A DNA stretch of 64,000 nt from positions 451,918,001 to 451,982,000 of the forward strand of contig CM097882.1 in assembly GCA_044892505.1 (NCBI GenBank). The letters are read 5' to 3'. The stretch is from Schmidtea nova (taxonomy: Eukaryota). The translations under genes were made by a program, and so were the position numbers. Positions 25,851-54,575 of the stretch are shown piece after piece. Each line of letters begins with the position of its first letter. Positions within the stretch are counted from its first letter, which is position 1. Under the pieces are notes generated by a model. That model was not told the DNA's origin and searched no databases. It was given only the letters and a program-made list of their open reading frames with translations.

Positions 25851-26029
25851 AGATTCAGATAATTTCAAGGTAGTTTATGTTACATTTTTTAACGTAAAGT
25901 TATATGCTCTTTTGAATCAAATTTTGCTATTGGAGGTATGCTTATTATTTTTGTTATATATATTTGTGAATTTTGTCATTGCCATTAGCTAAATAAAACT
26001 TCTTTTAAAAATATCTTATTTTTATTAAG

Positions 26030-26382: not shown

Positions 26383-26853
26383 GCATACTGTGCCGAGTAG
26401 AATGACTGCTCCGTACAGTTGGGCCGTCCGACCGGTGTATAGCGCCGTGAAGAGGGTAGGAATTTTTATTTTAACCATGATTTCTAACCTTATTTTTCAC
26501 TGGATAGTATAACCAGTTGAAGTTTTATTTTATAACCGATTTGATTTTATGAGTTTATAGTTGAGTAGAGTTTGATTTTAGTTTGAGACAGATATAGCTG
26601 CGATCTTATTAACCTGGTTTTACCTTGAGATTCACAGAGTGTTAACGTATATTTTTCGATTGTCACATCTGGGGTTTGTGGGCATAGAGCGGCAGATACA
26701 CGGTTAAGAATTTGTACAAAATACATTTTTTAAATATAACCATTTCAAAAATCGATAATTCAATAGCGTAGTGATCTACTACGCAAGTAACATAACAGCA
26801 ATAGGTTATAGGATCAAACATTCCACATAAATAATTAAATATAATTGCTTATC

Positions 26854-26989
26854 CTGAACCCTGTACATAGGGCAGTAGATCTTAGTTTATTTAACTAATT
26901 TTGTAACCTGATTGCTGTATATAGCACAGGCGTGAATAAATAAAATGTATTAAGAAATAAATGTATCTGATCGCTGTACATAGCGACAG
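26854..26989 (+). other. Array of three bulged hairpins with GTAYAT hexaloop (copy at 49057-49192)
   Basis: CTG-AA-CCCT-GTACAT-AGGG-CAG; CCTG-AT-TGCT-GTATAT-AGCA-CAGG; CTG-A-TCGCT-GTACAT-AGCGA-CAG. Confidence 0.8.
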
Positions 26990-27117
26990 TGTTGAAAGTG
27001 TAATAGGTAAATCATTTTCTTTTCCTGAATTAGCAATTAATAACTGTCAAAAGTATGAGAATCGTTCGAATCAAGACTACCAATTTCATGTTAATAAACC
27101 ATCTTGAATTTTAGAGA

Positions 27118-27711
27118 ATGTCAGCCAACACAGCAACTAATCAAGCCGAATTGGATAAAGCATGGAGGATAATTCGCAGCCTGGAAAAAGAAATGTTACG
27201 GAAATCTGAAAAATTAAAAGAAGCCGATGGCATAATCTCAAACCTGAAGAAAAGCTGGTTCAGTCCAGAGCAGATGAAAACACAAATTATAAAAAATCAA
27301 CGCTCACAGCGAGCAAACGAGGAGATCAAAATGGAATTGGACGCGACGAACATGGAACTAAAGAAATGTCTAAAATCTGTAACGGCGTCGTATTTAACTC
27401 AAGAGCTCAGCCAGCTCATTCGACCAATCACTTATCAGCATTGGGCTGACGAGAAAGCAGGATGCACAAAAGGAACGAACACCGAGGAACCATCTCAGGT
27501 TCGCGCAATAACAATAGCAGCAAGTACACCAAAGAACACGACAAATCCAGAAGGTAAAAGGAAGAAGAAGAGCAAGATGGGAGCGCGCCAGCGTCGCTGG
27601 AAGAAACAAGTTCTTCAGCAATTGGCACCGCAATCAAAAGAAATTCCCGAAATTGATCTAACTATGAACTTTGCAATATCGGATGAAGACATTACCAAAT
27701 ACTTTGAATAG
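27118..27711 (+). CDS. LTR-encoded 197-aa coiled-coil protein with an Arg/Lys-rich motif
   Basis: Intact ORF, identical in both LTRs, with a clear homologue at 59131-59727 (shared KSWF-P--MK, EL-KCL-SVTASY, IRPITYQ-W); basic motif KRKKKSKMGARQRRWKK. Confidence 0.85.
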   Translation: MSANTATNQAELDKAWRIIRSLEKEMLRKSEKLKEADGIISNLKKSWFSPEQMKTQIIKNQRSQRANEEIKMELDATNMELKKCLKSVTASYLTQELSQLIRPITYQHWADEKAGCTKGTNTEEPSQVRAITIAASTPKNTTNPEGKRKKKSKMGARQRRWKKQVLQQLAPQSKEIPEIDLTMNFAISDEDITKYFE

Positions 27712-28311
27712 GAATTCTGTGATTTAGTTATTTTCGCGTATTAAATAATTTTTGTTTTGTATTTATTTTATCGTAAAGTATATGAAATAGAGTGATTTAT
27801 TAAAAATTTAAAATAATTTAAAGGAAAATATAAATTAAATTAACTATACATTAGAATTAACAATAAGATTAACATAAATCTAATAAACAATAGAAACATT
27901 AAAGAGATAATATATTGTAATTGACTAAAGATTATTTGTTGATATTGTAAAGAAGGGGGCTGAAAGAAAAGTTGAAAGTTGAAATATATTGTAAAGAAAA
28001 GGGGGCTAAAGAAACATTGAAATGAAAGATAATGGATGCGGATAGATTAAAGTAAAAGCGTAAGTCCTTCTATCGGCAGCGAGACGAACCCGTGAACATA
28101 AATGGGGAGTAGTTTTAGCAATAGAGCTCACCTGCCCATCATTGTTCAAACACCTTGCACATTTCCAACTCGATTATTACAGGGAAATGATCGAGGGTGC
28201 TCGTGTGATATGTAAGCATTTTATGTGAGGTTTTGGATGGAGGAATCCCTAGAGCGTTTAGTTTAATTTTCTAATTTTGTTTTAACCCAATCCAGACCGA
28301 CAACATAAATT

Positions 28312-28329
28312 TGGAGGCTCAGCCGGGAT
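28312..28329 (+). promoter_or_regulatory. Primer-binding site TGGAGGCTCAGCCGGGAT (most similar to a tRNA-Pro 3' end)
   Basis: Starts TGG 6 nt after the LTR; resembles the animal tRNA-Pro PBS pattern TGGGGGCTCRWCCGGGAT. The tRNA identity is an inference. Confidence 0.75.
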
Positions 28330-28705
28330 GAAAATGGTTTTGTGCGAAAAATTGAATCCAATAATAACAAGGAGTTTTAAAGTGCCCCTCAGCCGAAAAC
28401 TTAATTGATTTTTGTGTTAAAAGTGAAAACAATATCTACAAAGAATCTTGAAAACCAATGATTTAATAAATATAACAACAGACGACTAATAATTGATATT
28501 AAAAATGAAATAAATAAACATAAATAAATATGTCGGGACGACAATTTGATGAAGCAGGGAGAGGTTTAACATCAGAAAACGAAATGTACCACTACTTTTG
28601 ACCAACACAAATCGAACAAATAGGGAAACAAGATATTGAAATTTTTATTTTTGATTGAATAATTAATAAAACAGCAAACATATTAACAATATAAATTATT
28701 TAGCA

Positions 28706-29167
28706 ATGAACGACAAATTAAAAGAAATAGAAGAATTCTTAAACACGGAAAACAAAACATACGATGAACTATGCGAGAAAATAAGTCGAATAAGAGAATC
28801 CAGATTCAAAGAACCCATGACACAAACTGAAGAGACAACAGAGCTGATAAAAATAATGGAAAGAGTAGACAAAATAGATATAACAACTAGATACAAGTGG
28901 TACCGAACGAGAGTAGAAAATGCTGAGTTAAATATAAAATGCAGACAGTTAGAACAACAATTAACTCCAACATACCACAAGTGGACAATACAAGGAACTG
29001 AGACAGCCAAGAAATTTAAACTCTGTTACATATGTCGAGAAAGAGAGAATAAAATCATGTTTTTACCATGTGGACATTTCCGGTTTTGTGGAATCTGTGC
29101 AGCCAATTGCGACAAATGCCCGATGTGCAATCTCGAAATAGACGAAAGAATTATTGTGTATTTATAA
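28706..29167 (+). CDS. C-terminal RING (IAP/XIAP-type C3HC4) protein, no BIR domain
   Basis: CYICRERENKIMFLPCGHFRFCGICAANCDKCPMCNLEIDERIIVYL at the extreme C-terminus, preceded by coiled coil. Confidence 0.85.
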   Translation: MNDKLKEIEEFLNTENKTYDELCEKISRIRESRFKEPMTQTEETTELIKIMERVDKIDITTRYKWYRTRVENAELNIKCRQLEQQLTPTYHKWTIQGTETAKKFKLCYICRERENKIMFLPCGHFRFCGICAANCDKCPMCNLEIDERIIVYL

Positions 29168-30577: not shown

Positions 30578-30579
30578 GG

Positions 30580-30800: not shown

Positions 30801-31419
30801 TGACAACGAAAGGAATATGAACCTAGAGTTGAAGTCGTCGACGAAGTGAGAATAGTGAGCATTAGAGTTTGAGTAATACGAGTAAAGATGATTAAGTAAA
30901 CTAGAGATACAGTATGCATACAAGTAGAAATAAGAATAGGAGAAATTAGAGTTGACTAGAAATAGTGAGAATAATGAGTAATGATGATACCATGAATAGT
31001 GATAAAATGATAATTGAGTCAGGAGAACTCAAGGGAATTAAAGCGTTTGAGCGACAAATTAAATTGGGAGATTGAGGGAAAAGTAATGAATTTATTTGAT
31101 AACGATAGATAATTATTACGACCATATAGATAATTGTTACCAGTGAATAGATAATTTAAATAGACTTAAATAAAGGGGAAACCGGGAATGGGGAAACAAT
31201 GGAAACCCAATAATGAGGAATAAAAGCGCAACGATAACAATGATGTATCGTTGAAGTGACTTTTTAATTTAGATATACGGAACAGAACAAGTCAAAACAA
31301 CCAACCAATCAATCAGAATACGATAACAGAGAAACAGAAAAATTGATAAATTAAAGAAAAGTAAACCGAGATCAAGAGCAGTTAAAAATCAAGAAGTTAA
31401 TAATTCACAAAGAAATAAA

Positions 31420-34400
31420 TTGAGATCAAGAGCAGTTAGTGCTACAATCGAAAAAGTTGATAATTCACAGAGAAATAAATCGAAACAAAGAGCAACCAGT
31501 GCTACAAAGAAAACAAATCCTAAAGGAAGTAAATCAAGAAGAGTAATAGTAGAAAAGTCAAAAATCGAAAACAGTAAATTAACAAAAACTAACGAAAGTG
31601 AAACAGAAGAAAGTTCAAGTGAAACCTACGATAATTATAATAATACGGAAGCATCAGATAACGAGTCAATAAACACAGAAGAAGTAGAAGCAGAAATTGA
31701 TAATAATTCAAACGAAACGAATAACGAGCATACTAGTGAAACAAGAGGAAACGAGAGTAAAACGACACAAGACAGCGGAATTGAAATGAACGAGCATAAA
31801 GAAGAAATCAAAGATAAATTTACTGGAGAACCATTCAATGGAGATGCCAGCAAGTTGGAAACGTTTTTAAAAGAATTTGGTATATTTGTAGAAGTATGTA
31901 AATGGAAACCAGAAACGATAAGGAGCAGAATTCAGTTATATTTAAAAGACAGTGCGTTAGACTTATATTTAGAAGCTAAAAATTCAGATGATCAACTTGA
32001 TAGTTGGGAAAAGATAAAGAATTTTTTCCAGCAAACGTTTGGAATAAATAAAGTATTAAATGAAGCATTTACAGAATTTTCAATGAGGAAACAAAAAGTT
32101 AATGAATCAAATGCAGTATATGCAAGTGAATTAAAGAAATTGGCTAAATTAGCATTTAATCAAAATAGTCCAATGAGTTCAGAATTAATGGCAGCAATTT
32201 TTGTGGGGGGATTGAGAAGACCCGATATAAGAGCACAAGTTGGATGCCAAGGTTGTAAAACAATAGATGAAGCGTTGGAAATCGCTAACAGATTTGAATT
32301 ACATATGATCGGAAGTGAAGGAAGAATTTACCTAGCAATGGATACGACACAAAATGAACAAGCAATGAAGATAAACAATCATATCCCGAATTCACAACAA
32401 TTAAACCGACCACCACCTCAAAGGAGAAATGAGGGAAACAAAGTACAAAATTTCGGAAACCAAAATAATTATAATACGCAAGGACAGACAAAGCAATGTC
32501 AAACCTGTGGAAAGTTAGGACATTGGCAACAAGAATGTTTCGTGAACTTAAATTGTAAAACGTGTGGAAGAAAAGGACATTCGGAAAATAGATGTTACCA
32601 AAGATCATGTTATAACTGTGGACAACCAGGTCATATGGCAAAGAATTGCCAACAACAAAACAACCAGCTAAGGAATTGGTCGAACAACGGAAATCGACAA
32701 AATTATGCGAATCAACAGAATAACGGAAACCGTCAGAGTTATGGAAATCAACAGAGTAATTATAACCAGAATAAAAGTACCACCAAAGAAATACATTTAT
32801 TACAAGAAGTTCAGAGATTGACAGAGTTAATAAATAATACACCGAGAGGAAATCAACAAACGAATCAACAACAAATGAATATGATGAGAAAAGTAGAAAG
32901 TGAAAACGAACGACTAAATCGAGAAAGTCAAGCACGACATGCTCAAGAATGGGCAAGAATACAAAGAGAAGACGAACAGAAACGACAAGAAAGAGAACGA
33001 CAACCATTGAGAATTAATATGATGAGAGCAACGAATCAAACAAGAGATAACAAAGAAGATATTGAACCAGAAACAAACCGGATAAACCCAAATCCGGAAG
33101 ATGAAGAAAACCAAAAAGAAATAGTACAAGAAAACGAAGAAGTTATTAAACAAAAAAGGATGTTGGTAGTCATGCCAAACGATCATGTATTTCGATTTGA
33201 ATATGATGAAAAAGAGGAAGTAGGAGTATTAATTAATAAAGTAAACAAGACGATTCCGGGAATGACGAAACTACCCCGAGAAGCAATTTTACAGACAGAA
33301 GACGAAGCAGCAATAAAATTGAAACCAACCGACATATGGAAAGATTTAGGAGTACCAATGAATAAAATGAAAGTCACAGTTATCCAGGAAATAGAAGAAA
33401 ATAACGATGAAGAGAAATCAAAACCAGTAACAAAAGTCAAAAGTAGAGCATTGAAGATATTTGAAGAGAGAATCAAACAGAGAAAAGCAATGGAGATAGA
33501 AAAACGAAGAGGCCAAATAGAAGAATCAGGAACCAATGACAAAAAGGAAGGAATACCACAAAAAAATGTACCAGATAAAGTAGAACAGACAGCACTCATT
33601 AATATGTTAAGAAACTTAACTAGAGAATTTTCAGATGTAGAAAGTGACAGTGATGTCAGTAGTTTAGCAGGAGATATGCTAAAAGAACCAGAAAATGAAG
33701 ACAACAAGATAGAAGTAGCGAAGACGCCAGAAAATATACAAATAAAAGAAGATGAAATTCAGAAACTATTAGATAATGCGTTAGAAGTGATTTATAACGA
33801 AGAATTTATTGATAAGAAGCGATATCGAAAATTTATAAGAGCAGTATTCCGAACGAACTATAAAGAACGGTTACAAAGTCGTGAATTAGAGATATTATCA
33901 GGATACGTCGTCAAACTATTAGAAGAACCACTCCACGAATACATAATTTTAATAGAAATAAACGAATGTTCACCAAGAATTTGGATCAAATCTCCATGCA
34001 CGAATGAAATTTATCGATGGGTAGAAGACAGATTGGGAAGTTCGTATAAAAACAAATTTATATATTCAGGAAACGAACTTGTAAGACGAGCAACGCATTT
34101 GGTAGAAACAGGCATATGGCCAGGAGAGATAAAAACATTATCAATATGCGACAATAAGAAAGAGGAGAATTTACAAGAAATTGCAAAGGAAGCAAATATG
34201 TGTTTTGAGATGAGAATTAAACCTCAGTTAGTAGAAAGGAAAGAAAGAATTCTTAGAGAAAATTTAAATTCACTAATAGAACAAATTATTCAACAAATCG
34301 ACAAGAATAGAGAAGAATTAACAAAAACTGAATATGAGAAATTAAAACAATGCATCGAAAATATACGAGATACCAGCCATACGAGACATTCGTCATACAA

Positions 34401-37400
34401 GACTTGGAAAGTGATCGCGAAAATGGGAAAAGCGATGTTTAAACGAGGAGAAATAGGAGATTTGAAAATCAAAGTGAAATTACCAAACGAGGACACAAAA
34501 GAAATTGAAGTAATCGCGGATTGCACAATAGAAGAATTAGTTGATGTTATCAATGAGACTTTATTACAACGGGAAAAAGAAGACGAATTAGAAGACGATA
34601 TCATCATGAAATATAATGAACACGTGCTAGGAGATCATGATGAGAGACGATTATATAAAATTGGCATATGGGATAATTACCAAACAATTCATGTTATCAG
34701 AATGGATGATACACCAAGAGAAACACCAAAAGATGAAAAAAGGAGACAAGAACGTCGAAGAGAAGAGATGCACAAACTAAGACAAATAATAGAAATTTAT
34801 CGAAGATGGCAGATACAGCCAGAATGGGAAAATGTTTTAGGAGAATTAAACTTCAACGAACGCCGATTAATACCAGTAGAGAAACACTGGGAGGTTAAAG
34901 AGAAATGCTGGAAAGCAAAAGGAGGTATATATGAAGAGGAATTTAGACCAGAAATGGAAGACAAATATGAACCAGAAATTAGAAGAGTTTGTATGGTGAC
35001 AAGAAAAGTCATGCCAACAGATTTAGATGGACCAGAAACCGCAGCAATATGGTTAGAAACGCAAAAACGAAAAGCTGACGAACTTATTGAATTACTAAAA
35101 GGAAACGTACAAGGAAAAAGGCGAACGATCAAAGGATTAGCCGAATTCTTTGTAGCAGGCGGCGAAGATATAATCAGTTTAAGAAAAGTAGCCAAGGTAG
35201 TAACAGAATATAAACGAGTTAACGAGTGGTGCCCAGAACAATTAGACAATGTAATCAAGAAATGGAGAAACCAAGAAAACTCCCAAGAACCACCGCAGAA
35301 AATACATTTAAGGATAATATATCCAGATCGAGAAAAAGAAGAACTTTGGGTAAGATTAACCGAAAAGATTCGAGATGTTAAAAAGAGATTAAAATATGAA
35401 CCACCATTTCATCTACAACATCAAGGACGATCACTAGAAAACGATATGGAAATTTGGATAACGCCAGCACAGTTAGAACTGGCAAATACGTTAACAGTAG
35501 ACGCAATAGCAGGTCAACCATTAAAACTTAAAGAGAAAAGAATAAAAGAAAGTGGAGATACTCAGAATCTAAGGAAGACGATGCAGATAAAACCAGGAAC
35601 AAGCGCAAGGCAGTACGAAACAACATCAATTAAAATCCAAGAAAGAACTCGACCACAACCATACGATACAGAAGAAATCTTAACAGACAGTGATGACATG
35701 CTAGAAGAATTAGCAAAATTGACAAAAGAAAAAGGCAATAATATTTTCGAAAGAGTACAAGAGTTACCTACAACATCACAAGCAATCAATACCCAAGATG
35801 AAGTTGAGCAAGAAATAGAGATAGAAGAAGTGAACGAAATCTCTGAAGAAGAAGCAAGAGGAGCAAATACAGAAAAGGAACGATTAACACAAGAAATGGA
35901 AAAATGGTGGGAACAGAGAAATAATGAACCAAGAGATGTTACAGAGGAAACTGGACGAGAAACCAGATTGATTGAAGCAGGTACAACAATGGATAGACGA
36001 CCTAGAGGTAGACCAAAGACTGATCCAGCCAACATAATCAACAAAACTAAAGAGGAAAGGAGACAAGAGAAATGGGAATTATGTTTAAAGAAACTCAACA
36101 AAATAGCAGAAGCAAAAGACCAGGAAATAACGCAAAAATGTCAAGGTGAAGGATGGATATCAAAAACACTAATGGAAATATTGGCGATAATTGATCCAGA
36201 ATTGAAAAAATGGTGGAGAATAAACGAAATAAGCGACAAGGCTAAAGCATTACATAGCGCAATCGCACCAATCTTACCCGAACTGATAAAAGAGAAGACA
36301 AAATCAAGCCATTTAGATTGGCAAGGGACCACAACGTTGATAAAGAGGTTAACTGAAGATGCAGAAAACGATAATAAATATGTGATAGCAATTGCGTATA
36401 CAATTTATAACTTATTAACATTGAGTAGAGGTAATCCAAAATCTATGGCAATAGAGAAACATATCAAAAATACGGCAGGCATCATAGCAAAAGAAATAGA
36501 ACCATACGTCATCAGTAAAGGAGGATGGGAAACATTTGTTAAAACGAATCAAAGAAACAGTCAAGCAAAGAATATGAAAAAGAAATTTGAAGAAATTTTA
36601 GGAGAATTAGAAAAAGAAAAGTCAGGAACAGGAGGTGGAAAACCTTCACTAAACCTGAATTCAATCATAATGATGATATTAATATGGCTAATTAGCGTTG
36701 AAGGAGCAACGGCGTTCGAAGTATTTGATTGCGACCAGATGGCATTAGGAGAAAAATATTCATTAAGAGGAACCGAACAATGCAAAGATGCAACTCCAAC
36801 AGAGCTAAAAGTACTACATAGTAAACAAATATATCACGTATATCAGGAAGCCGACTTAATAAAGACAACAGTTAATGAATGTAAAATATATAAAACAAGA
36901 TTTGCTTTTTATTGTGGACATCGCCACTACTCTGCAATCGTAATGCCAGGAACGGAAAGGGAAGCGATAATGTTACAAGGAGAAGATTGCAATAAATTGT
37001 TCAAACATGGAGAAGTCGAAACAAGAGATCGAATAAAGATAAGAGGAAAAGCTGGAGTAATACTACAACAAACATATTATGTAGCAGGAGCTATCACAGG
37101 AGGAGAAGGTTACTGTCAAGGAGCAACATATCCAATATTTGGAGTACCAGCAACTAACCTGGTAGTAATCGACACATACACGGTAGAATTAAAAGCGTAT
37201 GAAGCATATTTTGACCCAGCTACAGGAGAAATGAAGACGTTATCAATGTGCAAAATTGAAGCCAGTACTTGTCAAACCGGTATGTCAACTTTAACATACA
37301 GAGCAAAAGCAAATGAATGCCAATTACAATTATTAAAGGAAGCGGAGTTCGACGAGGTACAAGGAAAAATCTTTCAGGAAGAATATGATGATGAAGTAGC

Positions 37401-40400
37401 AAGAGGAAAACGTCTACAGGAGACAGTAAAAGGAGAGAAACCGTTCACAACTAAAGTACAAGAAAAAGAGGTGAGGATGAGGGAGACGCCAACAGTATTG
37501 GTTACATCAAACGCAAATATAGGAATGAGGTTTGTAAAAGGAAAACCGACATTAAAATGTGGTGTTTCTATGTTAGAAACGAATTACCCAGGTATTTATG
37601 TATCAAGACAAGCAGCACCAAATGCAAAACCCAAGGTAGATACTACAGACATCAAATTACACGTATATTTAAATAACAAATTGGATTTTTTATTTCACAA
37701 AGGCCAAGCATCAATGGAGAAAATATACTACGATCTCATTAACAGCGACTGTATATTGAACAGAGAAATATTAAAGACGAAATTAGCAGTAGCAATTACA
37801 AACCCGGATAGTGCTATGCCATTATTACCACTTAACGAAGGTCATTTTGGAAGAGTAGTTGGAGAAGTTATGTACGTATATATATGTCGAAAGACACAGG
37901 CAAACGTAGCAACAACGACCAGAATACGACAAGGACAATGTACCAATGAATTGGAAATTGAATATAAAGGGAAAATAAGATATGTACAACCAGTGACAAG
38001 GATCATTAATCCGGTCAGTTTTGAACCAAACCCTTTCAATTGCAGTAACGCATACGGACCACTATATCAGAAACCAGACGGAAATTGGGTCATGTTTCCG
38101 TCAAAATCAGAAGTACAACCACCTAGAGAATTTGAATTGATGCAACTTTCAAAAGGACGAAAATTTTCCAATATAGATGTAAATAATGGAGGAATTTACA
38201 GTGCAAAAGATCTCGAAGCAGCACGACAAAATATATTATTTCCAGCTAGGAGAGAAGCAGTATTATCTAGCATCGTAACGATAACAGGAGGAACAAGTTA
38301 TCAAGGAGGACCAAATTATGAATTATTACTGTCACCAGCACACTTTAGGAAAGCAACAGAAAATATGATGAAAGCAATGTGGGGACGATTTTTAATTTTC
38401 GGACAAATGATGGCCGGAATACTAGGTGTAATTTTAATCATACAAATAATACGAGTGATAATCACACAAATGCTAGCATGCTTTGATATTTATAAAAGAG
38501 AAAAGAAAGTTAATTGGAAATTAATAGCAGGATTTTTACCATTTTTAGCAAAAACGATGGTGTTACATGGTCACTCCAAAGATATTCACAGAATAAAACG
38601 ATTATTAAAAATACTGGCAAAAATGAAAGGAACGGATGAAGACGTGGGAAGAAAATTCAAAAAGATAATGACAGATGAACAAGCGAGACTACAATTAAAA
38701 AGAGAAAGAAAAGGATTATGGGAAAGAATAAGAGGAGATAAAACTCAAGATGATTCCAGTGATGACGATGATAACAATGACGACTGCGAAGGAGGGCAAA
38801 GGTACAGAAACCAAGCACCGCAATATAGCGACAAGAATCCAGCAGAAGCATGGAAATGTCACGCACCTCCACCAACAATGTACCAAGAACCATTACAGGT
38901 ATCAGGACACAGAGCAATGCAAATGATGCCAATGACAACTTTATATCCAATTATACCAGAAGATTATAAACTTAGACGATGTAGAAGTATGGATCCGCAA
39001 GACGATTCACTCACAATTGCAGTCATGACATCAAATATAGGACCAGTATTAACTACAACTATAGAAATAAATGGAAAAGAAATAGAAGCGATGATAGATA
39101 CAGGAGCAAATATTTCGGCGATAGATATCAAATGGATACCGCAAGAACAGAGACAAGAAATCGAAAGAACAAATGTTCATGTAATCGCATGTAGCAAAGA
39201 GATAGTTGAAGTTGCAGGAAGATGGTGGATAAAAATACGACACCAAAATATAGAAATCGAAACGTATGTAGCAGTAATACCAGCTTTAAGCGTACCATGT
39301 ATAATCGGAACAGATTTAATGCCAACACTATTTAAAGAAATAATCATCGATCTTGGAACAATGAGATTAAAGGACAGAACAGGGAAAATATGTGCTATGG
39401 AAGCAAAAGTAATAAACTCGAAACAAATAATGATACCGGAAGAAAGAATCATGACGAGATCACAAACAGTCAGAATAAATATGCTCAGAGCAGAGGAAAT
39501 TAACACAACTAGTCAAGTAGAAAGTGAGAAAATCGATGTTGACAAAGAAATCGTACGAAAAGCCAAAGAAATAAACGAAAGATGGGAAATCAGACAAGAA
39601 AAAGACGTATTATGGGATATACGACAAATAATTAGTGATTACGCACGAGGATGCCCAACCAAACCAATCATAATAGAATTACTAAAGAAAATACCAGAGA
39701 TACTCGTATTACAAGATACAGGAAGTGCAACTGCACTACACAATGCCATAAGTTGGGGTAAAACGGAAAAAGTAAAAGAATTTTTGAAAATAGCAAAAGA
39801 AACGAATCAAAATCTAGACATTGTAAATCGAGAATTAGAAACGCCAATGATGACAGCAACACTAAGCTTAGCAGATAAAGAAATAGTAGATATGCTGATC
39901 AACGCAGAATTCAACTGGACAGCTCGTGATAGAAGAGGAAACACAGTTTTAAACCATGCAATAATGAGTGAAAATCAAATGATACTAAAACATATAACAA
40001 CCAACCTCACATGGGAAATCGATGAATTAATCAAAGGAGAAATTATGAAGGAAGCGATTCGGAAAGGAAACACTAAAACCATATGGAAACTAATACAATG
40101 GAAATGGCCGAATAATAAAACATGGGTATTAGATATAAACAAAGAATTTAGCGAAGGACAGAACGCGCTATTGAGATACTTATTAGAGTTTACGTGCGAT
40201 CAGAGAACAATGTTAGCACTAATAAATAGAGGAAAAATAAATATTAGTAAAAACGAAGAGGAATATAAACTAGAAGTCGAAAAGAAAGCGTTATTCAGGA
40301 AAATTTGGATATGGTGTCAAAAACAACTACGCAAAGACATAAGCTACAAAAATCTAAATGATTTCCAAGAAAAGTATAAAACGATAATAAAGGAATACAA

Positions 40401-40656
40401 GAAGCTAGTGGAGATATTAAACGATCCAGAAAAATTTAATCAAGCAATAAATCAGAAAGAAGAAGAAAGTAAAAGGATACTCACACCATTGTTCAACGCG
40501 AAGCTAGATTACCAAGAAAGATTAGATGCAATACACAAAAAAGCAAAGGAACTATTACCAGAATTCAAAAATACTAAATACGCCTTGGAAATACTTGGCG
40601 CGATAGTAGAAAAGTACACGCGTACGCGAAAGGAATATATAATGGAAACGACATAA
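31420..40656 (+). CDS. 3078-aa polyprotein: Gag - 3x CCHC - ubiquitin-like domains - AT-hook - Bcl-2-like - signal/TM - chuvirus-type fusion glycoprotein - TM - retropepsin - ankyrin repeats; true start uncertain
   Basis: Gag FNGDASKLETFLKEF..QLYLKDSALD; CQTCGKLGHWQQEC, CKTCGRKGHSENRC, CYNCGQPGHMAKNC; RRPRGRPK; EPYVISKGGWETFV; VEGATA|FEVFDC; FGQMMAGILGVILII; AMIDTGANISAI..IIGTDLM; TALHNAISWG, RGNTVLNHAI. The frame is open from 31327, but the first ATG is about 120 codons in. Confidence 0.92.
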   Translation: MRSRAVSATIEKVDNSQRNKSKQRATSATKKTNPKGSKSRRVIVEKSKIENSKLTKTNESETEESSSETYDNYNNTEASDNESINTEEVEAEIDNNSNETNNEHTSETRGNESKTTQDSGIEMNEHKEEIKDKFTGEPFNGDASKLETFLKEFGIFVEVCKWKPETIRSRIQLYLKDSALDLYLEAKNSDDQLDSWEKIKNFFQQTFGINKVLNEAFTEFSMRKQKVNESNAVYASELKKLAKLAFNQNSPMSSELMAAIFVGGLRRPDIRAQVGCQGCKTIDEALEIANRFELHMIGSEGRIYLAMDTTQNEQAMKINNHIPNSQQLNRPPPQRRNEGNKVQNFGNQNNYNTQGQTKQCQTCGKLGHWQQECFVNLNCKTCGRKGHSENRCYQRSCYNCGQPGHMAKNCQQQNNQLRNWSNNGNRQNYANQQNNGNRQSYGNQQSNYNQNKSTTKEIHLLQEVQRLTELINNTPRGNQQTNQQQMNMMRKVESENERLNRESQARHAQEWARIQREDEQKRQERERQPLRINMMRATNQTRDNKEDIEPETNRINPNPEDEENQKEIVQENEEVIKQKRMLVVMPNDHVFRFEYDEKEEVGVLINKVNKTIPGMTKLPREAILQTEDEAAIKLKPTDIWKDLGVPMNKMKVTVIQEIEENNDEEKSKPVTKVKSRALKIFEERIKQRKAMEIEKRRGQIEESGTNDKKEGIPQKNVPDKVEQTALINMLRNLTREFSDVESDSDVSSLAGDMLKEPENEDNKIEVAKTPENIQIKEDEIQKLLDNALEVIYNEEFIDKKRYRKFIRAVFRTNYKERLQSRELEILSGYVVKLLEEPLHEYIILIEINECSPRIWIKSPCTNEIYRWVEDRLGSSYKNKFIYSGNELVRRATHLVETGIWPGEIKTLSICDNKKEENLQEIAKEANMCFEMRIKPQLVERKERILRENLNSLIEQIIQQIDKNREELTKTEYEKLKQCIENIRDTSHTRHSSYKTWKVIAKMGKAMFKRGEIGDLKIKVKLPNEDTKEIEVIADCTIEELVDVINETLLQREKEDELEDDIIMKYNEHVLGDHDERRLYKIGIWDNYQTIHVIRMDDTPRETPKDEKRRQERRREEMHKLRQIIEIYRRWQIQPEWENVLGELNFNERRLIPVEKHWEVKEKCWKAKGGIYEEEFRPEMEDKYEPEIRRVCMVTRKVMPTDLDGPETAAIWLETQKRKADELIELLKGNVQGKRRTIKGLAEFFVAGGEDIISLRKVAKVVTEYKRVNEWCPEQLDNVIKKWRNQENSQEPPQKIHLRIIYPDREKEELWVRLTEKIRDVKKRLKYEPPFHLQHQGRSLENDMEIWITPAQLELANTLTVDAIAGQPLKLKEKRIKESGDTQNLRKTMQIKPGTSARQYETTSIKIQERTRPQPYDTEEILTDSDDMLEELAKLTKEKGNNIFERVQELPTTSQAINTQDEVEQEIEIEEVNEISEEEARGANTEKERLTQEMEKWWEQRNNEPRDVTEETGRETRLIEAGTTMDRRPRGRPKTDPANIINKTKEERRQEKWELCLKKLNKIAEAKDQEITQKCQGEGWISKTLMEILAIIDPELKKWWRINEISDKAKALHSAIAPILPELIKEKTKSSHLDWQGTTTLIKRLTEDAENDNKYVIAIAYTIYNLLTLSRGNPKSMAIEKHIKNTAGIIAKEIEPYVISKGGWETFVKTNQRNSQAKNMKKKFEEILGELEKEKSGTGGGKPSLNLNSIIMMILIWLISVEGATAFEVFDCDQMALGEKYSLRGTEQCKDATPTELKVLHSKQIYHVYQEADLIKTTVNECKIYKTRFAFYCGHRHYSAIVMPGTEREAIMLQGEDCNKLFKHGEVETRDRIKIRGKAGVILQQTYYVAGAITGGEGYCQGATYPIFGVPATNLVVIDTYTVELKAYEAYFDPATGEMKTLSMCKIEASTCQTGMSTLTYRAKANECQLQLLKEAEFDEVQGKIFQEEYDDEVARGKRLQETVKGEKPFTTKVQEKEVRMRETPTVLVTSNANIGMRFVKGKPTLKCGVSMLETNYPGIYVSRQAAPNAKPKVDTTDIKLHVYLNNKLDFLFHKGQASMEKIYYDLINSDCILNREILKTKLAVAITNPDSAMPLLPLNEGHFGRVVGEVMYVYICRKTQANVATTTRIRQGQCTNELEIEYKGKIRYVQPVTRIINPVSFEPNPFNCSNAYGPLYQKPDGNWVMFPSKSEVQPPREFELMQLSKGRKFSNIDVNNGGIYSAKDLEAARQNILFPARREAVLSSIVTITGGTSYQGGPNYELLLSPAHFRKATENMMKAMWGRFLIFGQMMAGILGVILIIQIIRVIITQMLACFDIYKREKKVNWKLIAGFLPFLAKTMVLHGHSKDIHRIKRLLKILAKMKGTDEDVGRKFKKIMTDEQARLQLKRERKGLWERIRGDKTQDDSSDDDDNNDDCEGGQRYRNQAPQYSDKNPAEAWKCHAPPPTMYQEPLQVSGHRAMQMMPMTTLYPIIPEDYKLRRCRSMDPQDDSLTIAVMTSNIGPVLTTTIEINGKEIEAMIDTGANISAIDIKWIPQEQRQEIERTNVHVIACSKEIVEVAGRWWIKIRHQNIEIETYVAVIPALSVPCIIGTDLMPTLFKEIIIDLGTMRLKDRTGKICAMEAKVINSKQIMIPEERIMTRSQTVRINMLRAEEINTTSQVESEKIDVDKEIVRKAKEINERWEIRQEKDVLWDIRQIISDYARGCPTKPIIIELLKKIPEILVLQDTGSATALHNAISWGKTEKVKEFLKIAKETNQNLDIVNRELETPMMTATLSLADKEIVDMLINAEFNWTARDRRGNTVLNHAIMSENQMILKHITTNLTWEIDELIKGEIMKEAIRKGNTKTIWKLIQWKWPNNKTWVLDINKEFSEGQNALLRYLLEFTCDQRTMLALINRGKINISKNEEEYKLEVEKKALFRKIWIWCQKQLRKDISYKNLNDFQEKYKTIIKEYKKLVEILNDPEKFNQAINQKEEESKRILTPLFNAKLDYQERLDAIHKKAKELLPEFKNTKYALEILGAIVEKYTRTRKEYIMETT

Positions 40657-40673
40657 TAATTATAAAAAGAGAA

Positions 40674-43600
40674 ATGCCAGTTGCGTTTTTATTAACAAAA
40701 GAAAGAATAATGCCGATTCATAGAGCATTGAGAGCAGGAAAAGACAGTAAAGTAATCGAAATCGCAAGATTAATGCATCAATGTGGATGTGATATGAATA
40801 TGATAGATGAAAAAGGAGACACCCTCATGGTATACGCAGCAAGAGCAAAAACAAAAATCAAAGTATTAGAAGAGTTATATAAAGCAGGCGCAGGATTAAT
40901 CGGAAAAACTGTCAAAGACAACTCAATATTAGACGTGACATTATTAGGTCCAAACTGGGAAATGTTGAATTTCATTAAAACGATAACAAACCAAGAAGAG
41001 ATAGATTATTTAACAGAAACCGTAAAAGGACCAAGCGTATTGACAATGATGCAAAACATCAAATTGACAGAAGAAGTATTAAACTGGAAAATACCAAATA
41101 CAAATAAACCAGCATTTAAAGTTAACAAGTTTATGGAGAAAAATCGAAATTGGTGTATCCAAAGCGCACTAATAACTTATATATGGCCCGAAATTGTAGA
41201 AATTTTTATGAGAAGAGAAGACCTGAGATTTACAAACAAGCCTAAAGAAACGGAAAAGGTAGTTAAATGGAAAGAATTGATGAAAACACACCTTCAAAGA
41301 TGGATAAAAGCCAAGAAAGAAATTATACAGTATCAGTTAGACAACAAAAAGATACCCGAAGATATAGAATTCCAAGAATTCGAAGCAAGTAATTTAACAT
41401 CACTATATTATGCAAAACTAATAGAAACAAGTAATGTCGAGGACGACATTTTTAACGAGCCAGGGAGAGATAATAATACTGACAATGACGATGACGATGA
41501 AGAAAACAAGGACGACGAGAGAAATAATGACGACGAAAGAAATAAAGACGATGATGATGATCACGGAAACCCAGATAACCACGAACAAACCAACAAAGAA
41601 GACGAGAATCAAGAGAGAAATACAAAGAACCACGAATCCAAAGAACAAAGAGAAGACAACCCTAAAAACAATCATGAAAAGAAAGGAACAAGTTACAGAA
41701 GGAATCCATTATTCAGACCAGAAGTATTAATGTTCGCACTAATCATAACATTTATGGGACAATGTGAAGCAACGGAACAAGAGATATCAGTAGAAATGGA
41801 AATACCAATACAAAAAGCATCAACGCAAATAATGAATTCAAAGGATATTGAACAAGTATGTTGGGTAAAAGAGAATGAAATTCTCGGAGATAACAACCTA
41901 TTACGATGTATAATACCAAACCCCGAGCGAAAAACCATAATAGTAGACGAAATGGATATGGAGACATGGTACAGAATATGTACTATCAGAAAACCCAAGG
42001 ACGAAAAATCACACAAAATAGTTACATGCCAAGTATACAAGACACCCAAAGTTCGATACGAGTTCGCCAATGGAATAGACCTTCCAGGACCATTTTATTT
42101 TAAAATAACAAGAGAACCAGCATCAAGAAAAGTCTTACAACCACCAAGAACCAAGATAACAACACCAAGTATAAGGAATACAACGGATAAACCAGAAGCA
42201 AACGGAAGAAATACAACGGTTAAACCAGAACCAAAAAGACGAACGAAACAAACCACAAGAGTAATCTATAACTCCAAGTTGTTATGTATAGCACTTATTA
42301 TGACAATACTGAAGCGATTGGAAGAAGGGATAGAAATGGATACAATGACATTAATAGACATGGAAGAGACACGAATGACAAATCAAAAATGTTGGTTTAG
42401 AAACGATGAAAAATTAGAATTAAAGGAATCAAGAGAAATTCGAAAATTGGAAGCGAGTAAAACGAACAAAGTAATCAAGATAATAAAGATAAAAACAGAC
42501 AGAATTCATAAACTATGTTTATTGGAAAAAGAGAGAAACAAGAAAGGAATAACCAATTGTAAAACATCCCAAGCAGGGAAAATAATAACGTTTGCAAGAA
42601 AGATGGGGAAAAGAAACAAACAAAATTTCCAGAAATTAACCATAACGTTAGAAATGACGGGAATAGAACAAAACGTAAAAGGAGTATGCTGGAGAAAATA
42701 CGAGAAAGAAGCGAACAAACACAAATCAGCACAATGTCAAACAGTTGTTAGAGGAACAACTGCAGTGCAAATAAAAAGCTTAGAAAGAAATCAAACGTAT
42801 GAAATATGCCTAGTAAAAGAAAATGATCAAATAACGAAAGAAGATTTAGAATGCAGAATATACAAAGCACCGAACAGAGTAAAAACCATTAAAGCAATAC
42901 GAAAGAATAAAAGACAACAAAAACCGAAGCATACCACTACCGAAAGTCAAACAGAACCAGAGAGAAAAACCTCAGCAACACTTATACTTTGGAAATTGGA
43001 TGACAAAACAGTAGAAATATGTTGGTCAATGATCAAGAAATACGAAGAAAGACAACCACAACAATGCGAAAAGATGAATAAAGAAGAGGAGATCAGAATT
43101 CAGAACCTACAATTGGACAAACAATACGAAATATGCGCAATAGAGAAGACAGATAAATTCGGAAACCAGCAAGAAAAATGTGGAAACTACTATACACCGA
43201 CAAATACAACGATCAAAGGAAGAATCAAGAAACTAACTTTCGGAGAACTCAATCAAACAACGAAACAAATGGAAAACGAGGAAGCAATAATAGATTCTTA
43301 TGCCAAATGGAAACCAGAAAAAGTAATCCATGAAGTCAAAAGGAAACAACAAGAACGACAACAATTGGAACTCAAATTAAAAGGACAATATGGACCAATG
43401 ATTAATCAAAGCAAATTCACCCAAATCAATATTAACAAACAAGGAAGAGAACTAATTGGAGTAGGAATATTGGCAGTATGCGTACCAATAATAATAATAT
43501 TATCAATAATATGGTTATGGGACATAATAAAAAAGAAACCAACCAGACAATGGCCAGATATAAAGATCATGAATTGTAAAATCAAAATACCTGAAGAAGT

Positions 43601-43697
43601 GAAGAAAGAATTCCAAAGAAGAACCAAAGGCAAAGAATTTTGGAAGCAAATAGAAGACGAGGAGCGACACGATGAAAAAGCAGTGATGATAGTATAG
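40674..43697 (+). CDS. 1007-aa protein: ankyrin repeats - acidic D/N/E linker - hydrophobic signal/TM - four FN3-like Cys/Trp repeats - C-terminal TM
   Basis: MPIHRALRAG, KGDTLMVYAARA (ankyrin); four repeats CW..C..(I)xxLxxxxxYxIC..C; TM LIGVGILAVCVPIIIILSIIWLW followed by KKK. Confidence 0.8.
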   Translation: MPVAFLLTKERIMPIHRALRAGKDSKVIEIARLMHQCGCDMNMIDEKGDTLMVYAARAKTKIKVLEELYKAGAGLIGKTVKDNSILDVTLLGPNWEMLNFIKTITNQEEIDYLTETVKGPSVLTMMQNIKLTEEVLNWKIPNTNKPAFKVNKFMEKNRNWCIQSALITYIWPEIVEIFMRREDLRFTNKPKETEKVVKWKELMKTHLQRWIKAKKEIIQYQLDNKKIPEDIEFQEFEASNLTSLYYAKLIETSNVEDDIFNEPGRDNNTDNDDDDEENKDDERNNDDERNKDDDDDHGNPDNHEQTNKEDENQERNTKNHESKEQREDNPKNNHEKKGTSYRRNPLFRPEVLMFALIITFMGQCEATEQEISVEMEIPIQKASTQIMNSKDIEQVCWVKENEILGDNNLLRCIIPNPERKTIIVDEMDMETWYRICTIRKPKDEKSHKIVTCQVYKTPKVRYEFANGIDLPGPFYFKITREPASRKVLQPPRTKITTPSIRNTTDKPEANGRNTTVKPEPKRRTKQTTRVIYNSKLLCIALIMTILKRLEEGIEMDTMTLIDMEETRMTNQKCWFRNDEKLELKESREIRKLEASKTNKVIKIIKIKTDRIHKLCLLEKERNKKGITNCKTSQAGKIITFARKMGKRNKQNFQKLTITLEMTGIEQNVKGVCWRKYEKEANKHKSAQCQTVVRGTTAVQIKSLERNQTYEICLVKENDQITKEDLECRIYKAPNRVKTIKAIRKNKRQQKPKHTTTESQTEPERKTSATLILWKLDDKTVEICWSMIKKYEERQPQQCEKMNKEEEIRIQNLQLDKQYEICAIEKTDKFGNQQEKCGNYYTPTNTTIKGRIKKLTFGELNQTTKQMENEEAIIDSYAKWKPEKVIHEVKRKQQERQQLELKLKGQYGPMINQSKFTQININKQGRELIGVGILAVCVPIIIILSIIWLWDIIKKKPTRQWPDIKIMNCKIKIPEEVKKEFQRRTKGKEFWKQIEDEERHDEKAVMIV

Positions 43698-44155: not shown

Positions 44156-44251
44156 TCAAATTGTAGCGGAAAATTGTATATATGTAAAAATAAAACTCTA
44201 GAAAAATCAAAAACAAAGAACAAATCAATGTGTGTATATATTATTGTAGAA

Positions 44252-45607
44252 ATGGATAAAGAGGAACGAGCAGTCGAGATTTTGAGAGCAGCAAACAGAA
44301 ATTGGAACAAGAGATTTGTATGTGGATATTGTAATAATTTATTACGGAAACCAAAGCAAACCGCCTGTGGATGTAGATTATGCACCAGATGTGTACAAAT
44401 GTTAGAACTAAAGAAAATAACAGAATGTCCAGAATGTAAAGAAGGACAAATAGTATTAGACGAAACAAGACCAGATAGAGCAACTCAGAGAGAAATCATG
44501 AGCATATTAATTGAATGTATAAATCCACCGTGCATATGGCAAGGACAAATCAGCGAAATTGAAAATCATATAGAAAATTGTGAAGAAAAGAGAAGCGAAT
44601 GTGAAAAGTGTAAAGAAACGATAATTTTAAAAGACAAAGAGAAACACAGAGGTGAATGCAAAGAGGAAGAAATCGCATGTGAATATTGCGAAATTCGAGA
44701 AACAAGGAGAAAATTTGAAGAGGAGCACATCAATATAAAAGAAGAGAGAATATGCGAACAGTATGTAGGAGTGTGCCCAAACAAATGTGAAATTACCGAA
44801 GAAGTGAAATTACGAGAACATTGGGAAAAGTGTACAGAAATACCAAGAGAATGTCCTTACAACAGATATGGATGCAAGGAAAAGAAGTCTCAACAAAATA
44901 TGAAACAACATTTAGAAACAGAAGCAATCAATCATATTGAAATGACAGACAGAACAATTCAGAAATTAGAAAAAGAAGTGGAATCTCATAAAATAATGAT
45001 GAACCTATTATTAGAAACGAGAGAACAGTTTGAATTAACCCGAAGAAAGATGGAAAAGAAAATAATAGCCATCAAGGAATTAGCAAAAGGAATGAAAGTG
45101 CAATATAACAAGTTAATACAAGAAATTGATGAGAAAAAAGATTTACCAATAGCACCTTATGTGTGGAAAATAACGGATTTCCGAAATAAATTGGAAGATG
45201 CACGAAGCTTCAAGAAAACTGCGGTAATAAGCCCACCATTTTACTTATGGAAAAACGGGGCTAAAGTGAGATTGAAAGTATACCCAAACGGAGATGGGAC
45301 AAGTATTGGAAAACACGTATCGATATTTTTTGCGTTTTGCAAAGGAGAATATGACGATTTAATCGATTGGCCGATAGGAGTAGGAGTAATGATAAAAATC
45401 AGGGGTTTAAACGAGACCATAGAAAAGAGATTCACGACAGAAAAAGGAGCAGTTACGAGTAACAGACCAACAGAAGAATGTGGATTAGCAAGTGGAGAAC
45501 CACACTTTGTATTACAAAGCAAGATATGGGGATTATTGTATGAGGACACCTTATACATAGAAATGGAAAGGAACGAGAAGGCAGATAGAAAAGGATGGTT
45601 GGCGTAG
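44252..45607 (+). CDS. TRAF-family protein (RING, TRAF zinc fingers, coiled coil, MATH/TRAF-C), intronless
   Basis: CGYCNNLLRKPKQTACGCRLCTRC..CPEC; C-N--C-W-G-----E-H---C; PYVWKITDF..ISPPFY....AKVRLKVYPNGDG...GKHVSIFF..KGEYDDLIDWP. The likely ATG is 44252 (alternative 44228; the frame is open from 44174). Confidence 0.95.
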   Translation: MDKEERAVEILRAANRNWNKRFVCGYCNNLLRKPKQTACGCRLCTRCVQMLELKKITECPECKEGQIVLDETRPDRATQREIMSILIECINPPCIWQGQISEIENHIENCEEKRSECEKCKETIILKDKEKHRGECKEEEIACEYCEIRETRRKFEEEHINIKEERICEQYVGVCPNKCEITEEVKLREHWEKCTEIPRECPYNRYGCKEKKSQQNMKQHLETEAINHIEMTDRTIQKLEKEVESHKIMMNLLLETREQFELTRRKMEKKIIAIKELAKGMKVQYNKLIQEIDEKKDLPIAPYVWKITDFRNKLEDARSFKKTAVISPPFYLWKNGAKVRLKVYPNGDGTSIGKHVSIFFAFCKGEYDDLIDWPIGVGVMIKIRGLNETIEKRFTTEKGAVTSNRPTEECGLASGEPHFVLQSKIWGLLYEDTLYIEMERNEKADRKGWLA

Positions 45608-47648: not shown

Positions 47649-50508
47649 TGTTGGATCCACCATTTGGTCCACATTTAACATAAAAAATAATAATAATAAT
47701 AAGAAATAAATAGGAACAAATTAAATGAATATAATTACGAGAAATATCAGTAAAAAACGAATTAAAATGTAATAAAGACTATTAATTTAATATCAAAATT
47801 AGAAGAAAAGTAAATGGAAAATGTAAAAGTGTTAAAGAAAAATGATAGTTAATTATATTTAAATAATAAGAAAGCGAAATAAATAAGTAAAAAAAAGAAG
47901 AAGAATTAATAAAAATTCGGTAAATTAAAACAAGAAAATGAAAATCATATTTGTTAATAAAATTGATTTTATTTTTACTAGAATTGTATTGATGACCATC
48001 AGATTGATGCTGATTGGTCAATGAACTGATCTGGTCAGTATAAATACTGATCCAGATTCAGATAATTTCAAGGTAGTTTATGTTACATTTTTTAACGTAA
48101 AGTTATATGCTCTTTTGAATCAAATTTTGCTATTGGAGGTATGCTTATTATTTTTGTTATATATATTTGTGAATTTTGTCATTGCCATTAGCTAAATAAA
48201 ACTTCTTTTAAAAATATCTTATTTTTATTAAGCTTCTTCCACTGTGTAATCAGTGGAAGGAGATAAAGGTATTCATAGGATTTATCATAATTAAATTAAG
48301 CTTCTTCCACTGTGCAATCAGTGGAAGGAGACGACTCTATTTATATATTTATTTATCCTTTATTGAGCTTCTTCCATCGTGTAATCGGTGGAAGGAGGCA
48401 ACATTGTGTATGATATTAACAATTAGGTTGAAGAATATTTTTATAAACAATTTTTGGGTCGAGCTTCTTCCCCTGTGAAATCAGTGGAAGGAGGCGAATA
48501 TATATATTATTTATATACAGTAGATACAGTAGAAATTACGTATGATTTAAGGGGCTCCGATCACCGTGCAATCGGTGAAATGGAGGCATACTGTGCCGAG
48601 TAGAATGACTGCTCCGTACAGTTGGGCCGTCCGACCGGTGTATAGCGCCGTGAAGAGGGTAGGAATTTTTATTTTAACCATGATTTCTAACCTTATTTTT
48701 CACTGGATAGTATAACCAGTTGAAGTTTTATTTTATAACCGATTTGATTTTATGAGTTTATAGTTGAGTAGAGTTTGATTTTAGTTTGAGACAGATATAG
48801 CTGCGATCTTATTAACCTGGTTTTACCTTGAGATTCACAGAGTGTTAACGTATATTTTTCGATTGTCACATCTGGGGTTTGTGGGCATAGAGCGGCAGAT
48901 ACACGGTTAAGAATTTGTACAAAATACATTTTTTAAATATAACCATTTCAAAAATCGATAATTCAATAGCGTAGTGATCTACTACGCAAGTAACATAACA
49001 GCAATAGGTTATAGGATCAAACATTCCACATAAATAATTAAATATAATTGCTTATCCTGAACCCTGTACATAGGGCAGTAGATCTTAGTTTATTTAACTA
49101 ATTTTGTAACCTGATTGCTGTATATAGCACAGGCGTGAATAAATAAAATGTATTAAGAAATAAATGTATCTGATCGCTGTACATAGCGACAGTGTTGAAA
49201 GTGTAATAGGTAAATCATTTTCTTTTCCTGAATTAGCAATTAATAACTGTCAAAAGTATGAGAATCGTTCGAATCAAGACTACCAATTTCATGTTAATAA
49301 ACCATCTTGAATTTTAGAGAATGTCAGCCAACACAGCAACTAATCAAGCCGAATTGGATAAAGCATGGAGGATAATTCGCAGCCTGGAAAAAGAAATGTT
49401 ACGGAAATCTGAAAAATTAAAAGAAGCCGATGGCATAATCTCAAACCTGAAGAAAAGCTGGTTCAGTCCAGAGCAGATGAAAACACAAATTATAAAAAAT
49501 CAACGCTCACAGCGAGCAAACGAGGAGATCAAAATGGAATTGGACGCGACGAACATGGAACTAAAGAAATGTCTAAAATCTGTAACGGCGTCGTATTTAA
49601 CTCAAGAGCTCAGCCAGCTCATTCGACCAATCACTTATCAGCATTGGGCTGACGAGAAAGCAGGATGCACAAAAGGAACGAACACCGAGGAACCATCTCA
49701 GGTTCGCGCAATAACAATAGCAGCAAGTACACCAAAGAACACGACAAATCCAGAAGGTAAAAGGAAGAAGAAGAGCAAGATGGGAGCGCGCCAGCGTCGC
49801 TGGAAGAAACAAGTTCTTCAGCAATTGGCACCGCAATCAAAAGAAATTCCCGAAATTGATCTAACTATGAACTTTGCAATATCGGATGAAGACATTACCA
49901 AATACTTTGAATAGGAATTCTGTGATTTAGTTATTTTCGCGTATTAAATAATTTTTGTTTTGTATTTATTTTATCGTAAAGTATATGAAATAGAGTGATT
50001 TATTAAAAATTTAAAATAATTTAAAGGAAAATATAAATTAAATTAACTATACATTAGAATTAACAATAAGATTAACATAAATCTAATAAACAATAGAAAC
50101 ATTAAAGAGATAATATATTGTAATTGACTAAAGATTATTTGTTGATATTGTAAAGAAGGGGGCTGAAAGAAAAGTTGAAAGTTGAAATATATTGTAAAGA
50201 AAAGGGGGCTAAAGAAACATTGAAATGAAAGATAATGGATGCGGATAGATTAAAGTAAAAGCGTAAGTCCTTCTATCGGCAGCGAGACGAACCCGTGAAC
50301 ATAAATGGGGAGTAGTTTTAGCAATAGAGCTCACCTGCCCATCATTGTTCAAACACCTTGCACATTTCCAACTCGATTATTACAGGGAAATGATCGAGGG
50401 TGCTCGTGTGATATGTAAGCATTTTATGTGAGGTTTTGGATGGAGGAATCCCTAGAGCGTTTAGTTTAATTTTCTAATTTTGTTTTAACCCAATCCAGAC
50501 CGACAACA
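47649..50508 (+). repeat. 3' LTR (2860 bp)
   Basis: Same sequence at offset 22200/22203; the encoded proteins are identical. Confidence 0.95.
49321..49914 (+). CDS. 3' LTR copy of the 197-aa LTR protein
   Basis: Identical translation to 27118-27711. Confidence 0.85.
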   Translation: MSANTATNQAELDKAWRIIRSLEKEMLRKSEKLKEADGIISNLKKSWFSPEQMKTQIIKNQRSQRANEEIKMELDATNMELKKCLKSVTASYLTQELSQLIRPITYQHWADEKAGCTKGTNTEEPSQVRAITIAASTPKNTTNPEGKRKKKSKMGARQRRWKKQVLQQLAPQSKEIPEIDLTMNFAISDEDITKYFE

Positions 50509-54542: not shown

Positions 54543-54575
54543 GTTTAAAAAAATAATTTTTGATCTATAGTCATC

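Follow-up and report, generated by a model that had tools for sequence, protein, structure and literature searches.

A predicted class III envelope domain in a Burro-type retroelement lineage that lacks reverse transcriptase and integrase

How does a fusion glycoprotein of the chuvirus and mononegavirus kind come to lie in a retroelement of Schmidtea nova, and which other parts of that element have been kept with it? The question is raised by a stretch of 64,000 nucleotides (GenBank assembly GCA_044892505.1, contig CM097882.1, positions 451,918,001 to 451,982,000, forward strand; hereafter the window), in which a preliminary description had assigned positions 36655–38570 to such a glycoprotein, used as envelope by a gypsy-type element. 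We consider it very probable that this region, env, is the in-frame envelope domain, predicted to be of class III, of a giant Ty3/gypsy element of the Burro type, and that the copy in the window, which lacks reverse transcriptase (RT), RNase H (RH) and integrase (IN), is likely mobilised by sister copies that bear pol. The core of the env finding is already in print, and the window holds a further member of a known element type; beyond what has been published, the envelope contributes a structural confirmation and no more, and the useful part is the pol-less lineage.

The envelope domain and its relatives

The env region matches PF24664 (Monjiviricetes_fusion) in Pfam with an E value of 6e-71 and 239.7 bits, against a cut-off of 27, which bears out the proposed glycoprotein family. 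A HMMER search among 1.84 billion proteins recovered 903 relatives at E ≤ 0.001, a match that, judged on sequence, is far beyond chance. A word-indexed homolog search returned zero matches because the relatives sit inside longer polyproteins, and a sequence search of the PDB gave nothing meaningful (best E 0.24). All motifs quoted for env fall in one frame, the stop-to-stop open reading frame (ORF) of 3109 amino acids (aa) at 31327–40656, where env lies in frame between a BCL2-like domain, immediately upstream of the env signal, and the protease (PR) of a 25-kb long terminal repeat (LTR) element of Burro type. Env is encoded inside a polyprotein rather than by a separate gene; the earlier designation as envelope holds for the family and the predicted fold, but not for a gene of its own.

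31327..40656, + strand: first piece of the polyprotein, 3109 aa, with Gag, a long unassigned region, BCL2-like domain, Env, protease and ankyrin
36130..36600, + strand: BCL2-like domain, weak (Bcl-xL match, E 0.12; layout in PMC6431247)
36661..36714, + strand: internal signal sequence (hydropathy; motif conserved among copies; cut at ATA|F predicted)
36715..38400, + strand: Env ectodomain, predicted class III (gB/chuvirus G) fold (Pfam, hydropathy, model, structure matches)
38407..38463, + strand: Env transmembrane (TM) helix (Kyte–Doolittle 2.57; model helix 541–581)
38509..38565, + strand: conserved, moderately hydrophobic tail segment, likely not membrane-spanning (Kyte–Doolittle 1.28; ratio of non-synonymous to synonymous substitution, dN/dS, 0.02 for TM plus tail)
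39058..39327, + strand: aspartic protease (Pfam; DTG motif conserved in 35 of 35 pol-less copies)

Hydropathy places a signal-like stretch at 36661–36717 (Kyte–Doolittle 1.97 over a 19-mer) that ends at ATA|FEVFDC, as had been described, and the TM helix was likewise found (2.57); signal, ectodomain and one TM would give Env a type I topology, judged by hydropathy. The second hydrophobic stretch fared less well as a membrane span, since its value of 1.28 lies below that of a usual span. The ectodomain contains 14 Cys and a single N-glycosylation sequon. 'Cys-rich', the term applied to it earlier, is correct as to the count, but 14 Cys in ~560 aa is simply the usual number for the family, and 12 Cys positions are at least 90% conserved in a 120-row alignment. 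The furin-like RGKR is present exactly at 37402, and in 40 of 40 near copies; by alignment, however, it is not a conserved activation site, because RGKI stands in its place in all 12 copies read from a subfamily 85% identical, and because the site falls in a variable insert, where the other relatives shown have no RxK/RR motif. A passage of PMC13524379 calls the furin site 'not always conserved' in gB-type errantiviruses.

The structure model of env, built on an alignment of 108 sequences, has a mean predicted local distance difference test score (pLDDT) of 89.7 (~70 at RGKR) and a predicted template-modelling score (pTM) of 0.73, and shows a long β fusion domain and a central helix of 48 residues. 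By Foldseek, every match listed from the PDB was herpesvirus gB (best E 9e-14), and the best matches in a predicted viral structure library were chu-like glycoproteins (E 2e-37); the comparison with class III proteins, which had been proposed as a check, thus found their fold. VIA-align superposed the model on post-fusion gB with Z 10.8 and a root-mean-square deviation (rmsd) of 6.1 over 400 aligned residues; pre-fusion gB aligned far less well (rmsd ~40 vs ~6), and vesiculovirus G and Dhori virus GP scored lower than gB (Z 6.4). The class III match spans the whole ectodomain. The chu-like match is not independent of the sequence match, because the alignment behind the model contained chuvirus-like proteins; the gB match is independent of it. 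We predict Env to be a class III fusogen because its model matches both chuvirus-like G and post-fusion herpesvirus gB. As for an F-type (baculovirus F-like) protein, the matches listed were all class III and no F family appeared in Pfam at E ≤ 0.1, a family outside those listed being still possible. Env shares its predicted fold and domain order with gB and chuvirus G, at identities of 10–14% and 16–25%, respectively (20–25% for the chuvirus G proteins in the alignment), and differs from both in having an internal signal within a retroelement polyprotein.

Much of this anatomy has been described in planarian Burro elements, where the region between BCL2 and protease was recognised as env, in frame between gag and pol, with matches to the fusion glycoproteins of mononegaviruses and gypsy Env as the top HHpred label (PMC6431247, 2019). 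The window element resembles Burro/GYPSM1 as presented there in its kilobase LTRs, its one giant polyprotein, its Gag with CCHC knuckles, its env between BCL2 and protease, and its ankyrin and TRAF/MATH modules; the sister subfamily here most often has an ORF of 5,140 aa, the length given in that report. It differs in that copy and lineage are without RT-RH-IN, so that it is a non-autonomous derivative, in that its env is class III by model as against the label gypsy Env, and in that TRAF is a downstream ORF. The AT-rich genome, like the anatomy of the element, fits a planarian host, and the activin-type receptor gene of the window an animal one. Passages of PMC13524379 report six S. mediterranea elements (Smed_errantivirus_1-6) with a gB-type env in GAG-ENV-POL order and argue for ancient origins of such elements. 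These Platyhelminthes 'HSV/gB-type' errantiviruses resemble the window element in having a gB-type env before pol, and their domain I–II rows share motifs with the window env by eye, Smed_5 most closely. That survey differs in having taken intact elements with POL, and 'non-autonomous' and 'polyprotein' are absent from its main text. The mosquito BEL/Pao element Anakin (PMC7642597) carries the same glycoprotein family as the env-like gene of an LTR element, but in another carrier superfamily and at another env position.

Within the genome, families only 35% identical have env at the same place, with a complete pol in three of three read, and polyproteins from other datasets also place env before protease and pol. 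The env-bearing relatives P0001, P0002, P0003, P0005 and P0015 have two or three tandem protease-like domains after env. One env-PR-RT-RH-IN polyprotein, P0006, was deposited under a Flavobacteriaceae metagenome bin and is most likely animal DNA in that bin. An unrooted env tree was made from those 97 of 108 rows with residues in at least 400 of the 582 columns, after two long polyproteins had been removed because of their size. In this tree the 19 rows labelled as polyprotein env form one side of a branch (SH-like approximate likelihood-ratio test, SH-aLRT, 98), a grouping that is partly circular, as 5 of the 19 owe their label to similarity rather than to a domain check and for two others Pfam gave env only. 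P0030, a glycoprotein linked to DUF5641, which we take to be a Pao-associated domain, falls with the stand-alone G proteins and outside the clade that includes the window env. The tree fits an origin of env separate from that of the Pao-linked glycoproteins, and gives neither donor nor direction. To that extent the idea of an independent capture, and the phylogeny proposed as a check on it, were supported; the capture is nevertheless not new, being already in PMC6431247.

The pol-less lineage

What the preliminary description missed is the absence of RT and integrase from the window copy. In a sister copy 96% identical to it the order is PR-RT-RH-IN-ankyrin, with the enzymes in 3021 extra nt after the protease; the missing 1007 codons comprise RT, RH, IN and the segment before RT, and 5147 minus 1007 codons gives the observed frames of 4140 aa.

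25449..28305, + strand: 5' LTR, 2857 bp, TG...CA (LTR comparison)
39414..39442, + strand: in-frame junction, 3021 nt (1007 codons) absent as compared with pol-bearing sister copies
47649..50508, + strand: 3' LTR, 2860 bp (LTR comparison)

Splicing was ruled out as the cause of the loss, the missing piece having no GT...AG ends. Its ends share a short near-repeat which, together with the lack of splice signals, fits one template switch followed by amplification. In the sister copies we found the PR-RT-RH-IN order, Retrotrans_gag, and gypsy-type RH and integrase profiles that characterise Ty3/gypsy elements (Metaviridae), which bears out the gypsy-type carrier; of the Pfam families that we assume to be Pao markers, none was found in the window ORFs or the sister copies.

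There are ~3,000–3,400 env candidates genome-wide. A first look yielded 3048, of which 129 were scored (51 at 93–100% identity and 78 at 84–85%), and copies were chosen by best env score. We fetched 42 of the 50 other near copies and read 41 at the junction: the deletion was present in 35, five were unbroken and one was uninformative. Four of the 35 deletion copies have lost a further 18 nt in frame. Exact junction patterns counted genome-wide gave 48 deleted vs 18 unbroken, both lower bounds. The window copy is a member of a multiplied lineage that has lost RT and integrase and kept the envelope. Between its two LTRs there are one substitution and three gap columns, and a 4-bp target-site duplication, ATCA, lies directly outside both; given LTRs only one substitution apart, the insertion of this pol-less copy was recent. 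The 85%-identical subfamily has kept the start of pol in 12 of 12 copies read. The env families with frames of 3393–3401 aa were suspected of being pol-less and rejected as such, RT, RH and IN being present in three of three read.

Loss of pol and spread with a helper is reportedly also the history of TR-GAG, a pol-less non-autonomous LTR element, and of SFFV, a helper-dependent defective retrovirus. In contrast to that kind, the lineage described here retains Gag, Env, protease and downstream modules in one open frame. We found no published description of a pol-less Burro lineage or of its FN3 module (see below); Grohme 2018, its supplements and Repbase lay outside the search and may hold one. 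The lineage is a natural test of which parts of the giant polyprotein are needed in cis, in that the enzymes have been dropped while Env, protease and frame have been kept. Surveys that demand RT beside env overlook lineages of this kind.

Selection, recombination and rival explanations

Of the pol-less copies 31 of 35 have an open env, as do three of five pol-bearing copies and 12 of 12 from the sister subfamily; the sampling favoured copies with a good env. Among the 35 pol-less copies pairwise dN/dS (the pairs are not independent) was 0.12 in the half of env outside the search query and 0.08 in the half inside it, 0.02 for TM plus tail, and 0.07 for the protease. Compared with the sister subfamily, dN/dS was 0.07 for env, at dS 1.2–1.4, and 0.15 for the linker between env and PR. 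Shared variants were more often synonymous than singletons (108/30 vs 72/65 synonymous/non-synonymous, p 8e-6), and the env variants common to pol-less copies and absent from the five pol-bearing ones comprised 49 synonymous and 9 non-synonymous changes. These substitution patterns show purifying selection at the amino-acid level on env in pol-less copies.

In three short and weakly resolved env trees, pol-bearing copies are scattered among the pol-less ones, with 5 changes against a shuffled mean of 4.7–4.8. Linkage within env declines with distance (0 of 500 permutations were as low), and four-gamete incompatibility is high, 49% even within 50 nt. Such patterns of variation show that env has been shuffled by recombination between pol-less and pol-bearing types, giving mosaic copies. 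Recombination between the types in turn implies co-packaging, itself required for helper-dependent copying.

We propose that the polyprotein would be threaded into the endoplasmic reticulum (ER) at the internal signal, signal peptidase cutting at ATA|F, and that the portion from Gag to the BCL2-like domain would retain the signal helix as a membrane anchor; tail-anchored BCL-2 proteins keep such a helix anchor. Env would be single-pass, with the protease and, if the copy is complete, also Pol on its cytosolic tail. Were the protein to cross the membrane a second time, the enzymes would end up in the lumen, a consideration that agrees with the weak second hydrophobic stretch. Particles would bud at Env-bearing membranes, the enzymes entering on the Env tail; in mixed particles containing helper polyprotein, the helper's Pol would reverse-transcribe and integrate the pol-less RNA. 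On balance we favour a role for Env in fusion between the membrane of the particle and that of its target, most probably another cell.

It is conceivable, though we think it less probable than not, that env is needed by pol-bearing copies only, the pol-less ones being young passengers whose env looks conserved through exchange with helpers during co-packaging. In the env trees the two types are interspersed, the junction shows almost no linkage to sites in env (mean r2 0.02), and dS within pol-less copies is about that between types, all as such exchange would have it. Yet the pol-less copies outnumber helpers 48 to 18, variants absent from the five helpers are still 49 synonymous vs 9 non-synonymous, and the main deletion and the further 18-nt loss in four copies both preserve the frame. 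Nor need Env act between cells. It might serve inside the cell, in budding into the ER or vesicles and fusing back, or mainly in determining how the polyprotein lies in the membrane and is processed, without any spread between cells; we regard this as rather unlikely. The conservation of the whole ectodomain, both predicted loop tips and the Cys set at 35% identity goes beyond what an anchor needs, and known class III proteins are entry proteins, but Env, in one frame with Gag and protease, is made one-to-one with them whatever the route, it has one sequon where stand-alone relatives typically have 2–5, and our literature search found no report of an extracellular Burro particle. After knock-down of piwi, BURRO1 RNA is seen in differentiated cells, those of the intestine included, and particles are not mentioned in the accessible part of that report (PMC8532177). 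Finally, there is a negligible chance that env is an endogenous viral element, a piece of chuvirus that integrated on its own, or that it was captured recently in a single event. The named stand-alone relatives are indeed chuvirus glycoproteins (P0025, P0032), but env is in frame with Gag and protease, has ~3,000–3,400 candidates genome-wide, holds the same position in families 35% identical and in polyproteins of other datasets, and is only 20–25% identical to chuvirus G; by these comparisons the explanation is refuted.

Several points weigh against our reading of env as a selected envelope domain of a helper-dependent Burro-type element. Sampling of copies by env score favours an intact env, and only five of at least 18 pol-bearing helpers entered the selection test. 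Four-gamete incompatibility may in part reflect recurrent mutation. The selection in pol-less copies may have been inherited by recombination from pol-bearing copies, and the claim of selection in cis is weakened because a clean env could be re-imported from helpers. As regards expression of env, cleavage, trimers, particles and fusion, the element is known from its sequence and a predicted model, and it was assigned to the Burro type by anatomy rather than by alignment to Burro1-4. No clear polypurine tract was found before the 3' LTR. Moreover, the reading frame of the window copy is broken by a frameshift near 40.6 kb, beyond both env and protease. Both sister copies compared read through this position, and the window's 23-nt word at the break has one occurrence in the genome, so that the break is a private mutation or an assembly error.

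If selection on env in the pol-less lineage is upheld under full sampling, it would support the view of Burro elements as enveloped viruses that pass from one cell to another; their hosts are animals whose stem cells serve as germ line. A stronger version, which we put forward only tentatively and think doubtful as a whole, is that of a helper-dependent, envelope-keeping, retrovirus-like invertebrate lineage, which arose by a single precise in-frame loss of RT-RH-IN. It would provide in cis Gag, a class III fusogen, protease and a second surface protein, of FN3 type, would draw its Pol from helper polyprotein in mixed particles and move from cell to cell, and would by now outnumber its helper by almost three to one.

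Other features of the element and its surroundings

The remaining features of the element are as follows.

28312..28329, + strand: primer-binding site, which pairs with the 3' end of host tRNA-Pro(TGG) except for one mismatch
28670..29167, + strand: accessory ORF with a C-terminal RING finger (PF13920, E 1e-11)
31936..32655, + strand: Gag capsid-like domain and CCHC knuckles (PF03732, E 3e-4, below cut-off; PF00098, E 2e-9)
39736..39990, + strand: ankyrin repeats (PF12796, E 9e-9)
40578..43697, + strand: second piece of the polyprotein, 1039 aa, split from the first by the frameshift near 40.6 kb
41700..43550, + strand: predicted second membrane protein, with a signal-like start and FN3-like β-sandwich repeats (low-confidence model)
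44156..45607, + strand: accessory TRAF-like ORF with RING, zf-TRAF and MATH (PF22486, E 1e-20)

Three CCHC motifs can be read off the Gag sequence. At the place of the BCL2-like domain, two related families match PF00452 at E 0.003–0.006, below the cut-off. The second membrane protein has a TM at 43455–43511 and about four FN3-like repeats, which are ~50% identical in the sister subfamily; the assignment to FN3 (Atlas 0.84, Foldseek E 6e-6) was made on a model of pLDDT 42. With a model of such low confidence this module is a lead only, and the protein might serve in attachment or as a decoy receptor.

A tandem array of tRNA-Pro(TGG) with a 308-bp period lies at G000:C1:459608206-459611227 (L070). 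Genome-wide pattern matches number 900 for tRNA-Pro(TGG) and 1,900 for the primer site, the latter including tRNA genes, as the patterns overlap. Each LTR contains a 198-aa open frame (27115–27711 and 49318–49914) and four spaced copies of a 63-nt unit with a palindromic core (26012–26305 and 48215–48508). The leader between the RING ORF and gag holds 25-bp and 41-bp tandem arrays (29185–29413 and 29706–30839), and a coiled-coil-like frame with no Pfam match and a small TM frame precede the 3' LTR (45824–46714 and 46886–47455).

Outside the element, at 51603–54575, are RT-like frames with a tandem 826-bp duplication and inverted arms; their C-terminus resembles what we take to be a GIY-YIG endonuclease, as in Penelope-like elements. 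A 202-aa frame at 59119–59727 is similar to the LTR frames and lies beside DNA that is 82% LTR-like (59959–60152); the two are probably a remnant of a related element. This frame adjoins an intronless activin/BMP type I receptor-like gene at 60831–62522, for which the best PDB match is ACVR1 (E 1e-103).

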